DNA of 54,611 nt, taken from Clostridia bacterium (lineage in GTDB: Bacteria; Bacillota; Clostridia; CAKSNL01; HGM11501). The notes below the pieces were generated by a model. The model made no database searches. It had not been told where the DNA came from and saw only the letters and a program-made list of their open reading frames with translations. Made by a program: the position numbers and the translations under genes. Below, piece by piece: positions 2,301 to 54,611 of this stretch. Numbering within the stretch: the stretch's first letter is position 1; each line of letters starts with the position of its first letter. Where the stretch lies: contig JAZQAZ010000048.1 in the NCBI GenBank assembly GCA_045545475.1, forward strand, positions 1 through 54,611, in the 5' to 3' direction.

Positions 2301-3596
2301 ATGAACAGTATGATTATTTATCAGCTTTCTTTCAGAGCCATGACACCGGAAGGAACAATAAATGCGGCGGCAAAAATGCTTCCCTACATTAAAAGCCTCG
2401 GCGTAACCTGGGTTTATATCGCCCCGGTCTGGAAGTCGGACGATTCTATGGATGAATCCTCCTGGAGCCCGAGACAGAGAAACTCCGGTTGCGGCAACCC
2501 CAAAAACCCCTATAAAATGGTGGACTATTTCAACGTGGACGAAGAATACGGCACCAACGAAGACCTTTTGGCATTCGTGGCTGAGGCACACAGGATAGGC
2601 CTTAAGGTTATGTTTGACCTTGTATATCTCCACTGCGGAGTAAATGCGGTATTTATCAAGGACCATCCCGACTGGGTGCTTCAGAATGAGGACGGAACGC
2701 CCCTGGTTGGCGAAACCTGGCCCTTTGCAAGAATAAACTATGACAATTACGATGTGAGAGAGTATCTCTACACCAATATGGAAACCTTTGTAAGAGACTA
2801 CGGATGCGATGGATTCCGTTGTGACGTGGGCGATTGCATCTGCATGGACTTCTGGGCAGAGGGAAGAAAGAGGGTTCACGCCATAAACAAAAATGTCATC
2901 TTCCTTGACGAGGGAATGAAGCCTGACTATGTAAATAGTGGGGTTTTCGATCTTCAGTACAGATGCCTTGCTTTTGGCGGCAGAGGCTGGAGAAGGCTTA
3001 TGGAAGCGGAAAACAAAACGGAGGAATTTAAGATAAACGAGGCATATTCCGCAAAGGCTGGCTATAAGCACGTTAACCTTTTTGAAAATCACGACCACGC
3101 ATCGGACAACGAGCGTCTTGATAATGTCTTTACGCCCGAGCAGACCGAGTGCTGTTATTTCCTTATGTACACAGTTCCCGGTGTTCCCTTTATATGGAAC
3201 GGCAACGAAATTGCGGACAAGGCGGAGCAGTGTATGTTCTCAAACCGCTTTTACGGAAAGCGAATCGGCATTAACTGGTCAAATGCTCTTCGTGAAGAGG
3301 GAATGGACAGAATGGAGTTTATCGAAGAGATTAACGCCATGAGAAAAGACTATCCCATGCTTTTCGATGCGGATATGAAAATTACAAGCAAGAATAAAAG
3401 CAGTTTAATCACATTTGAAAGAACAAAGGGAGATAAAAAAATCCTTGTGCTTGTAAACCTTTCCGATAAAAAGGCAAAGTATGAAAAAGACTTTTTAAGC
3501 TTTGCAACTGAAATTTCCGGAAGAAGATATGACTTTGAGGGAACAAAGGTAACCCTTGACGGCTTTGGCTTCTGCGCCCTTGAGTTAAAGAGATAA
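2301..3596 (+). CDS. GH13 alpha-amylase family glycosidase (no signal peptide)
   Basis: Conserved regions DLVYLH, GFRCDVG (nucleophile), FLDEG (acid/base), FENHD. Confidence 0.9.
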   Translation: MNSMIIYQLSFRAMTPEGTINAAAKMLPYIKSLGVTWVYIAPVWKSDDSMDESSWSPRQRNSGCGNPKNPYKMVDYFNVDEEYGTNEDLLAFVAEAHRIGLKVMFDLVYLHCGVNAVFIKDHPDWVLQNEDGTPLVGETWPFARINYDNYDVREYLYTNMETFVRDYGCDGFRCDVGDCICMDFWAEGRKRVHAINKNVIFLDEGMKPDYVNSGVFDLQYRCLAFGGRGWRRLMEAENKTEEFKINEAYSAKAGYKHVNLFENHDHASDNERLDNVFTPEQTECCYFLMYTVPGVPFIWNGNEIADKAEQCMFSNRFYGKRIGINWSNALREEGMDRMEFIEEINAMRKDYPMLFDADMKITSKNKSSLITFERTKGDKKILVLVNLSDKKAKYEKDFLSFATEISGRRYDFEGTKVTLDGFGFCALELKR

Positions 3597-42715: not shown

Positions 42716-42831
42716 TTAATCGACATCCTTTCTTAATATGTAATAATATTATACATTGTTTAACAAAAACTGTCAATAATTAAGGCGAAAATAAGTAAAT
42801 TAAAAAAGTGCGAAAAAATATAAAAAAAGTG

Positions 42832-42860
42832 TTGACAAGCACCGTTTATTATGGTATAAT
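42832..42860 (+). promoter_or_regulatory. Sigma-A promoter of tRNA pair
   Basis: TTGACA-17-TATAAT. Confidence 0.85.
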
Positions 42861-42882: not shown

Positions 42883-42958
42883 GCTGGTGTAGCTCAATTG
42901 GCAGAGCAGCTGATTTGTAATCAGCAGGTTGCGGGTTCGAGTCCCATCACCAGCTCCA
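42883..42958 (+). tRNA. tRNA-Thr(TGT)
   Basis: Acceptor GCTGGTG/CACCAGC, anticodon arm GCTGA-TTTGTAA-TCAGC, TTCGA loop, encoded CCA. Confidence 0.97.
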
Positions 42959-42963
42959 TATAT

Positions 42964-43048
42964 GGGGAGATTCCCGAGTGGCCAAAGGGGACAGACTGTA
43001 AATCTGCTGCTTCTTGCTTCGGTGGTTCGAATCCACCTCTCCCCACCA
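42964..43048 (+). tRNA. tRNA-Tyr(GTA)
   Basis: Acceptor GGGGAGA/TCTCCCC, anticodon loop CTGTAAA, long variable arm, GGTGG-TTCGAAT-CCACC, encoded CCA. Confidence 0.97.
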
Positions 43049-43262
43049 GAAAAAGCACCGATTTTGTTTCAAAATCGGTGCTTTTTTCAACGAAATAAAT
43101 CCTTTCAGGATTTGTGAAATACCTTTCGGGTGTGAAATATTGCTTCGCAATGTGAAATGCCTGCGGGCACGAGAGGGTTTATTTCATTTCACCTGATGCG
43201 AAGCATCAAATTTCACGATTTCTGCAAGAAATTATTTCACATCAACGAAGTTGATATTTCAC
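43049..43262 (+). repeat. tRNA-3'-anchored heptamer/hairpin element (complete copy), including terminator 43050-43087
   Basis: Terminator, then GTGAAAT at 43114, 43132, 43152 and ATTTCAC at 43186, 43210, 43234, 43256, with short hairpins between consecutive heptamers; second copy after tRNA-Arg. Confidence 0.88.
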
Positions 43263-43265
43263 TAA

Positions 43266-43294
43266 TAGACAAATTATAATATATGTGTTATACT
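43266..43294 (+). promoter_or_regulatory. Promoter of four-helix-bundle gene
   Basis: TAGACA-17-TATACT with extended -10 TG, starting 3 nt after the last ATTTCAC. Confidence 0.65.
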
Positions 43295-43314
43295 GACTTC
43301 AGGGAGATGATGTT

Positions 43315-43665
43315 ATGGCAGAATCAAAACTTAGAGACTTGTCGGTTGAATTTTCGGTTAAGGTAATAAAATTATGCGAAACGGTTAAAGGGCACCATTC
43401 TCTTGTTAATCAGCTTGAACGCAGTGCTACTTCCATTGGCGCAAATCTGCACGAAGCGAATTATGCACAGAGTAAGAATGATTTTATATCCAAACTGCAG
43501 ATAGCCTTAAAGGAATGTTACGAGACAGAATACTGGTTAGAGCTATTTGTGAAATCAGATATACTGGAAAGAGAAACTGCAAAGATTGTATACAATGAAT
43601 GCGGAACAATTCGCAAAATGCTTATAGCATCGATTAATACAGCGAAGGAGCATACTGAAAAATAA
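43315..43665 (+). CDS. Four helix bundle protein (23S rRNA IVP / TIGR02436-like)
   Basis: QLERSATSIGANLHEA..SKNDFISKLQIALKECYETEYWLELF signature; AGGGAG RBS. Confidence 0.9.
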   Translation: MAESKLRDLSVEFSVKVIKLCETVKGHHSLVNQLERSATSIGANLHEANYAQSKNDFISKLQIALKECYETEYWLELFVKSDILERETAKIVYNECGTIRKMLIASINTAKEHTEK

Positions 43666-54394: not shown

Positions 54395-54471
54395 GTCGTT
54401 ATAGCTCAGCAGGATAGAGCGACCGCCTCCTAAGCGGTAGGTCGGAGGTTCGAATCCTCTTAGCGACGCCA
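54395..54471 (+). tRNA. tRNA-Arg(CCT)
   Basis: Acceptor GTCGTTA/TAGCGAC, anticodon arm ACCGC-CTCCTAA-GCGGT, GGAGG-TTCGAAT-CCTCT, encoded CCA. Confidence 0.96.
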
Positions 54472-54611
54472 GAAAAAGCGACAGTAATCGACAGATTTCT
54501 GTCGCTTTTTCAACGAAATAAATCCTTGCGGATTTGTGAAATGTGCTTCGCACGTGAAATACACCTTCGGTGTATGAAATATTCGCTACGCGAATGTGGA
54601 TTTATTTCATT
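54472..54611 (+). repeat. Second tRNA-3'-anchored heptamer/hairpin element (truncated by window end)
   Basis: GAAAAAGC..GCTTTTT-CAACGAAATAAATCC, then GTGAAAT 54536, GTGAAAT 54554, ATGAAAT 54574 with hairpin spacers, then GGATTTATTTCATT. Confidence 0.88.

Follow-up and report, generated by a model that had tools for sequence, protein, structure and literature searches.

The window analysed here is the whole of contig JAZQAZ010000048.1, 54,611 nucleotides from a Clostridia bacterium (assembly GCA_045545475.1), and our subject is an element that begins at the first base after the CCA of two unrelated tRNA genes in it, tRNA-Tyr (element from 43049) and tRNA-Arg (from 54472). We found that this element is a member of Gut-1 (RF01706), a catalogued but unexplained Rfam motif, and not of an undescribed family. 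The 77-nt Rfam model covers part of a larger unit of about 215 nt, consisting of a mirrored pair of Gut-1 arms, a pairing centre and a terminator of its own, and units of this kind are coupled to a subfamily of PF05635 genes. We propose, with middling confidence, that the unit is a dispersed, variably present module of gut and rumen Clostridia, that its complete form adds a promoter and a PF05635 gene, and that its heptamer words are read by the linked protein or by another family-specific factor. Its most likely function would then be that of a cis site for the linked PF05635 protein inside a variably present cassette.

Membership in Gut-1 was determined with cmscan against Rfam 15. The two window copies scored 74.9 bits (43088-43163) and 79.5 bits (54511-54585), with E-values of 3e-13 and 2e-14 and a gathering score of 50, and alignment to the RF01706 consensus gave three hairpins parted by (G)UGAAAU words. 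The right arm of the complete copy (43181-43264) resembles Gut-1 on the minus strand, at 42.7 bits and E 7e-7 under relaxed thresholds, which is below the cut-off; sister right arms on the minus strand reached 50.7 and 50.3 bits. A preliminary description of this DNA had held that the element was not a described family, a claim that the RF01706 matches overturn. Weinberg et al. (2010; Genome Biol 11:R31; PMC2864571) described Gut-1 as a probable non-coding RNA found in human-gut metagenomes only, and a table in that paper grades it as certainly RNA; where it appears in PMC13674262, it serves merely as a folding benchmark. A literature search yielded no paper tying Gut-1 to PF05635 or to tRNA ends, although the discussion of Gut-1 in Additional files 1 and 2 to Weinberg et al. 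(2010) may already note that copies neighbour tRNAs or come in pairs.

The complete unit follows a Thr-Tyr tRNA pair (42883-43048, plus strand) that is driven by a consensus promoter at 42832-42860 (ARAGORN; promoter scan). tRNA-Tyr (GTA) occupies 42964-43048 (ARAGORN, Rfam tRNA) and is the last gene of the pair. The first piece of the inserted unit is a terminator-like hairpin of two-way shape at 43049-43087, flanked by an A-tract and a T-tract and reading G-A5-G, a 12-bp stem and T6. Both window loci share this order from the first base past the tRNA: G-A5-G, a variable stem, T5-6 and then CAACGAAATAAATCC. The left arm (43088-43163, plus strand) is the Rfam match itself, in which hairpins H1 to H3 part the words L1 to L4. 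L1 (43091-43096) is a degenerate heptamer, CGAAAT, that comes after CAA and is followed by H1, and the preliminary description had not listed it; L2 (43114-43120), L3 (43132-43138) and L4 (43152-43158) all read GTGAAAT, with H2 and H3 in between. In the second copy the (G/A)TGAAAT words stand at 54536, 54554 and 54574, so that the 18- and 20-nt spacing is identical in the two copies, as had been described.

The centre (43159-43186) consists of H4 (43159-43168) followed by GGGTTTATTTCA at 43175-43186, the location of the motif GG(G/A)TTTATTTCA, and this last stretch is complementary to 43091-43102. Four ATTTCAC words follow in the right arm, at 43186, 43210, 43234 and 43256, the last ending at 43262, and they are separated by H5 to H7, whose loops on the plus strand are C-GAA-G or GCAA. 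Two overlapping promoter-like sites on the plus strand (43251-43294), TTGATA-18-TATAAT and TAGACA-17-TATACT, precede the downstream gene; the -35 of the first falls within H7 and heptamer R1, and related loci repeat a TTGAAA-N17-TGnTATAAT arrangement. The gene itself (43315-43665, plus strand) encodes 116 amino acids and matches Pfam PF05635 at 86.4 bits (cut-off 33.8) and NCBIfam TIGR02436 at 98.7 bits (cut-off 24). By these matches and its closest solved structure (PDB 2RLD, E 7e-24), the product is assigned to the four-helix-bundle family of 23S rRNA intervening-sequence proteins and is predicted to be Avd-like. The gene is flanked by the Thr-Tyr tRNA pair on one side and YmdB on the other. 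The protein had no match among the PADLOC families, and on that search a place in a defence system was rejected.

The second unit starts at the base after tRNA-Arg (CCT; 54395-54471, plus strand; ARAGORN, Rfam) and runs to the window end (54472-54611), comprising a terminator-like hairpin (54472-54510), the Gut-1 match (54511-54585), H4 and the beginning of the centre. Contig C31, from the same assembly, shares 141 nt with the end of the window (C31:1-141), and the right half of this copy can be read from it. Thus completed, the unit after tRNA-Arg is a 245-bp insert that continues to about C31:246 and carries no PF05635 gene. The window therefore holds two forms, a gene-bearing one at 43049-43665 and a solo one from 54472 onward, whose spacers differ in sequence but are each a short hairpin. 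The window contig ends within the second unit, where the repeat broke the assembly, and repeats of Gut-1 units break assemblies in this manner.

We then analysed how the unit is distributed. The window genome comprises 50 contigs and 2.74 Mb, and a strict, motif-free detector, which required no fewer than 3 exact 6-mers and then no fewer than 3 of their reverse complements at a spacing of 13-30 nt, found 8 complete units in it versus 0 in a shuffled copy. Gut-1 exceeded the cut-off at 6 loci in this genome, all of them downstream of a same-strand tRNA (Tyr, Arg-CCT, Lys-CTT, Cys at the end of a five-tRNA operon, Trp and Leu-TAA), and at 4 of the 6 a second match on the opposite strand followed immediately. 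Three of the 8 detected units (C18, C24 and C41) have other heptamers, GCTAAAT/ATTTAGC and ATGATG/CATCAT, and a unit behind tRNA-Leu, additional to the 8, has GT(G/T)ATAT/ATATCAC. Heptamers of relatives include GCGATAT, TGAAATC, TCATTTG, TCATCAC, ATGAAT, GTGAAG and others. Within a unit all heptamers are alike, and the words of the right arm are the reverse complement of those of the left; left and right words switch jointly between families and remain reverse complements in at least 8 heptamer families. Because the words are alike within a unit and change jointly between families, a common reader of the heptamers is likely.

Beyond the window genome, Gut-1 was present in 13 of 14 genomes of the order. 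Among 27 loci of the order that we fetched, units followed tRNA operons, a tmRNA gene (L044) and a tRNA 3' fragment (L050), as well as protein-gene terminators (L034, L045, L036) and, in one case (L047), a strong TGnTATAAT promoter. In a class-wide sample of 151 genomes, 29 had a Gut-1 match at E <=1e-5, 20 of them over the cut-off; the matches fell in 20 of 108 genera, and two genomes had at least 20 matches each. The tRNA 3' end is thus the commonest setting of the units and not the sole one. The anchoring at the first base after CCA that had been noted initially is frequent; as a universal rule it fails, given the tmRNA, the protein-gene terminators, the promoter of L047 and a 17-codon open reading frame (ORF) that precedes some units. 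That ORF is hydrophobic (MVGMTVAVAVAIEEACK) and is the conserved stretch, itself behind a TATAAT-like site and without a tRNA, that a subclass of units with ATGAAAT or TTGAAAT words follows (G000 C8:2250-2360, which is L021, and L105, L116, L119, L120, L122, L123 and L125); the stretch may be a peptide gene or an unknown RNA. In loci from metagenome-assembled genomes (MAGs), an identical terminator hairpin sequence lies ahead of units behind tRNA-Trp in L067 and L072 and twice in L070, where no tRNA was called, and a near-identical one lies behind tRNA-Arg in L076.

All 4 PF05635 genes in the window genome (contigs C18, C24, C47 and C48) lie directly downstream of a unit, the units before them use three different heptamers (GTGAAAT, GCTAAAT and ATGATG), and one of the genes sits about 400 nt past a 5S rRNA gene. 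With these four proteins as queries, we confirmed 584 relatives among genomes taken one per species and kept the best 80 loci, all of which came from gut or rumen Clostridia MAGs. Among the 71 of these 80 loci with at least 260 nt upstream, a unit ended within 200 nt of the gene in 53, and 28 of the 53 units directly followed a same-strand tRNA; in several loci that were negative by the detector, a tRNA lay about 330 nt upstream. In the class-wide sample, PF05635 was carried by 26 of 29 Gut-1-positive genomes versus 25 of 121 Gut-1-negative ones, a comparison between related genomes for which we give no P value. None of 11 genes scoring at least 105 Pfam bits had a unit or tRNA upstream, and 11 of 18 genes at 91-103 bits had a unit, so the coupling is confined to a PF05635 subfamily.

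We also examined the far side of the gene. A right-end motif, GCATCT..., occurs within 80 nt of the PF05635 stop codon in 6 of 79 loci examined, and on this count it was rejected as a conserved right end after the gene. The same motif follows at least 7 solo copies, so that solo units may be gene-deleted derivatives. A short ORF comes straight after the PF05635 gene (e.g. ...VDRPLGSYHPEHPD...) in L066, at G000 C18:2290-2440 and in other loci, a hint of variable cargo.

Comparison of orthologous tRNA sites revealed that the unit comes and goes. In G006, a member of the genus, tRNA-Arg(CCT) beside BacA has a GCCACC...GGGTGG terminator and conserved flank immediately behind it, whereas in the window genome 245 bp, made up of the unit's terminator, both arms and a short tail, separate the CCA from that same terminator. 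The right junction of this insert repeats GCCA and an A-tract. The hairpin equivalent to 43049-43087 is absent at the empty G006 site, where the terminator that lies after the unit in the window genome directly follows the tRNA; the unit does bring its own terminator, as the preliminary description had it. In G001 the old terminator still stands behind the tRNA-Arg; after it come an 85-nt insert, a 20-nt duplicate of the tRNA end and a unit of another heptamer family. The second empty site is at the Val-Asp-Phe-Gly-Cys operon, where 49 nt in G006 correspond to 652 nt of unit and gene in the window genome; no unit was found at this site in G003, G004 and G008, and G005 has one of another family. 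The Thr-Tyr-unit-gene arrangement beside YmdB occurred only in G000, G001 and G005, and no empty counterpart of the Tyr locus was found among the other nine YmdB-matched loci, where no tRNA-Thr/Tyr pair stands beside the gene. With its two empty orthologous sites the element is variably present; the original suggestion of a non-autonomous mobile unit covers just part of this, as the complete window copy is the form linked to a PF05635 gene. A blastn search of 43049-43320 had no match in either the phage or the plasmid collection, and a phage or plasmid origin was rejected on this result.

Two kinds of locus show units with additional material. At G009:C10:49500-50200 (L030/L042/L049), three identical complete units stand in tandem with a 230-nt period, and every repeat begins in the loop of the terminator hairpin before it, a pattern suggestive of duplication through unequal exchange. 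Elsewhere, inserts of 85-190 nt lie between the tRNA terminator and the unit (G000 C4:20340-20530, which is L023; upstream in L037; C42:2523-2650; L148 in G001; L166/L030 in G009). They begin with an inverted T-arm-like sequence and end in a 12-20-nt copy of the 3' end of the neighbouring tRNA, CCA included. The inserts had no Rfam match at the gathering score; they are perhaps what is left of small integrative elements, or else a tRNA-like RNA.

What the unit keeps constant is the capacity of its spacers to form hairpins. Among 466 distinct spacers from 77 filtered units, each distinct spacer being counted once here and in the stem and loop counts below, 47% had a perfect stem of at least 5 bp, compared with 2% of shuffles. 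The ability to fold is kept and the hairpin sequence is not, as had been proposed from the two window copies. Orthologous Tyr copies (n=3) were 97% identical; G001 (L136) nevertheless has the whole of H5 (window 43193-43209) replaced by another hairpin, which is also present in L055, an unrelated MAG. Hairpins thus seem to be swapped between copies as modules and not to drift by paired substitution.

The composition of these hairpins bears on which nucleic acid folds. Of 2256 stem pairs, 2201 were Watson-Crick, 27 were G.T and 28 were A.C, and these are far fewer wobble pairs than expected for structured RNA. Triloops in the left arm were C-TNC-G in 68 cases, C-GNA-G in 3 and other in 38; in the right arm they were C-GNA-G in 54, C-TNC-G in 7 and other in 45. 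Tetraloops were GNRA or its complement in 47 cases and true TNCG in 2, many of the remainder being GNNA. Read outward from the centre, that is, on the minus strand of the left arm and the plus strand of the right arm, the loops are C-GNA-G and C-GNNA-G. The mirrored bias is of the DNA mini-hairpin type: GCGNAGC and GCGNNAGC are described as extraordinarily stable DNA mini-hairpins (PMC13037366), and such hairpins occur at the G4, RSF1010 ssiA and phage N4 sites (PMC13037366; PMC3201870). The strand of Gut-1 that loop and wobble statistics favour is the opposite of that in the Rfam model. Because the loop bias is mirrored and wobble pairs are rare, the folding species is more likely to be DNA, or both strands, than a classical small RNA made from one strand, and a curated "RNA" family may possibly have been assigned to the wrong strand or may in truth be a DNA structure.

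The same counts weaken the idea that each arm is a free-standing small non-coding RNA, made by convergent transcription (left arm from the plus strand, right arm from the minus strand), whose single-stranded GUGAAAU words between hairpins would sequester an RNA-binding protein as a CsrB-type sponge does. We consider this unlikely, even though the matches fit a curated covariance model, the family was graded certainly RNA by Weinberg et al. (PMC2864571), read-through from strong tRNA promoters is possible and, in L047, the TGnTATAAT promoter lies about 20 nt before the left arm and is directed into it. G.U pairs are nearly absent, 27 of 2256 and on par with the 28 A.C mismatches, and the loops in the Rfam orientation are UNC, UUGC and UUAC, true UNCG tetraloops numbering 2. 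The transcription context is also unfavourable: a terminator separates the tRNA from the left arm, two two-way terminators enclose the solo copy, which contains no promoter-like site, and a promoter scan found no minus-strand promoter near the window unit that could serve the minus-strand arm. In metatranscriptome contigs, which come with no strand, transcript ends or DNA control, the unit was covered at a depth of 2-12 and the gene at 2-8; tRNA cover in the same contigs was heavy and largely from other organisms.

Left and right heptamers had also been thought to pair with one another into a ladder of stacked four-way junctions on one strand, RNA or DNA. In favour of such a ladder, the words are reverse complements in every one of the at least 8 families, and the minimum-free-energy RNA fold of 43088-43266 uses several left-right pairings (z = -4.7). 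Covariation cannot name partners where the same word stands on all rungs, and the bases flanking the words showed no position-specific left/right pairing in 25 units with 4+4 heptamers. A different long-range pairing, P0, was found to covary. P0 joins L1 and the 5' arm of H1 (43091-43102) with the centre (43175-43186); its longest Watson-Crick run had a median of 9 versus 6 in mismatched-element controls, was at least 9 in 32 of 60 units and involved many different arm sequences. As P0 competes with H1 and takes L1, a nested ladder is excluded. The loop bias, being mirrored between the arms, leaves no single strand optimal, and half units exist. We dropped the ladder as unsupported, not as disproved, and regard it as very unlikely.

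A further explanation is that the heptamers are an array of double-stranded DNA sites about two helical turns apart, serving as operators for the PF05635 protein (with autoregulation through the last heptamer, which abuts the -35) or as sites for a nucleoid protein, as in repetitive extragenic palindromic (REP) sequences and bacterial interspersed mosaic elements (BIMEs), and that spacer palindromes are incidental or aid bending. The spacing of 18-21 bp in the window and related loci would suit such an array, as would the overlap of R1 and H7 with the -35 of the gene promoter and the extragenic position of the unit past terminators, shielded from transcription. Duplex binding, however, gives no reason for perfect hairpin spacers of freely varying sequence and does not explain a strand-specific, mirrored C-GNA-G loop bias, and solo copies have no promoter to regulate. 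We therefore think this explanation quite unlikely.

The mini-hairpin loops also raise the question of single-strand initiation, in which each arm would be a priming or transcription start on extruded single-stranded DNA, like the G4 oric, RSF1010 ssiA/ssiB and phage N4 sites. The loop chemistry is identical, and the two arms lie on opposite strands as do ssiA and ssiB (PMC13037366). There are, however, at least 8 copies in the chromosome next to tRNA genes, none was seen to be linked to a primase or replication gene, and the blastn search against the phage and plasmid collections was empty. In the sources that describe them (PMC13037366; PMC3201870), the mini-hairpins d(GCGNAGC) and d(GCGNNAGC), which match the spacer loops and closing pair on the outward strands, are single hairpins at phage and plasmid priming and promoter sites and not arrays beside tRNA genes. 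An initiation function appears extremely improbable.

We return to our proposal, a cassette whose unit is a site for the linked protein; a protein-binding scaffold, one of the two functions first suggested for the element, is still the best functional guess. In the mechanism that we envisage, the linked protein, or a different factor specific to the family, would recognise the heptamers as words shown as single strands between compact mini-hairpins; the strands with the stable loops would run outward from the centre, and the folded nucleic acid would probably be DNA, or both strands.

Several observations weigh against this proposal. Three Gut-1-positive genomes of the class-wide sample had no PF05635 match, and the window genome has a GTGATAT-type solo unit with no gene-linked unit of that type. 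Co-occurrence and adjacency could come from common descent and linkage alone. On the outward strands, G.T pairs outnumbered A.C (36 vs 19), a modest excess among copies that are not independent, and the promoter of L047, directed into the left arm, favours RNA. As for movement, no recombinase was linked to the unit, and a search of the far junction for a direct repeat of the tRNA end succeeded in 1 of 28 loci with a 12-mer of at most 2 mismatches (control 0.037) and in 3 of 28 with an exact 7-mer (control 0.043). The Cys locus of the window genome has a 10-of-11 repeat of the tRNA end; a flanking direct repeat, which site-specific integration of the tyrosine-integrase type at tRNA sites would be expected to leave, is not general.

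A bolder version of the proposal seems possible, and we offer it tentatively: Gut-1 would be half of a folded site, probably of single-stranded DNA, for a pentameric, Avd-like PF05635 subfamily, with five words per arm, one for each subunit. Avd is a pentamer. The PDB entry 2RLD holds 5 chains, and each arm of the unit has 4-5 heptamers. Site and gene would together make up a new class of tiny cassettes, inserted, at times several in a row, exactly at the 3' ends of stable-RNA genes, and the PF05635 ORFs in 23S rRNA intervening sequences would be the same phenomenon elsewhere. Those intervening sequences likewise place a PF05635 protein in or next to a stable-RNA gene with inverted repeats; they lie within 23S helices, however, and are cut from the transcript, whereas the units here come after tRNA, tmRNA or 5S genes and behind a terminator. 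Avd, the accessory protein of diversity-generating retroelements (DGRs), is a PF05635-like helical bundle that acts on structured nucleic acid (PMC10053308). Unlike in DGRs, no reverse transcriptase, template repeat or variable repeat was seen near the window gene; the only RVT_1 match of the genome is on contig C10, and the four PF05635 genes are on C18, C24, C47 and C48.

Other known systems resemble the unit in part. Like REP sequences and BIMEs, and like REPINs (REP doublets forming hairpins) with their RAYTs (REP-associated tyrosine transposases) in proteobacteria, the units are dispersed extragenic palindromes that come after terminators and occur as inverted pairs; a further likeness to REPIN-RAYT is that a family-specific sequence goes with a single linked gene, which the repeat flanks. 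The unit differs from these in being an array of words plus hairpins placed precisely at the CCA end of stable-RNA genes, and the linked gene encodes a 116-aa four-helix bundle and not an HUH/Y1 transposase. The sole Y1_Tnp match in the genome is at C30:129759 (25.7 bits), and no unit was detected on C30. Integron attC sites share imperfect palindromes, a fold that matters over sequence, 7-bp core words in inverted orientation, action as folded single-stranded DNA and small cassettes that stack at one site. They have 4 boxes versus 8-10 words here, and the cassette here has its own promoter; all 7 rows for the integron integrase IntI (TIGR02249) in the genome were far under the 265-bit cut-off. 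Set beside the Rfam description of Gut-1, the unit agrees in its full-length left arm above the gathering score, its three hairpins with GUGAAAU words and its gut bacterial habitat, and departs from it in standing at tRNA ends and beside a PF05635 gene, with strand statistics that oppose the model.

Gut-1 and the PF05635 family, which includes the DGR protein Avd, are two widespread orphans that have been unexplained for more than 10 years. Now that the two are seen to be coupled, physically and phyletically, each has a candidate partner, and binding can be tested directly. Very small cassettes in gut Clostridia appear to land preferentially at the CCA end of tRNA genes, and if the reading of Gut-1 as a single-stranded DNA site is true, the motif is not a free small RNA and the cassettes are a previously unrecognised class. 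In a large clustering study, the 23S rRNA intervening-sequence protein appears among CRISPR-array-associated proteins (PMC10910872); word-plus-spacer units like Gut-1 might have been counted as arrays there.

Two neighbouring features were observed in passing. In L036 (G006), an OLE RNA (RF01071, 163.5 bits, cut by the locus end) lies at 2881-3072, 1.3 kb from the Gut-1 unit. In the window, 42748-42860 contains two perfect 12-of-12 sigma-70 consensus promoters back to back, of which one serves tRNA-Thr/Tyr and the other a minus-strand gene for a haloacid dehalogenase (HAD)-type hydrolase.

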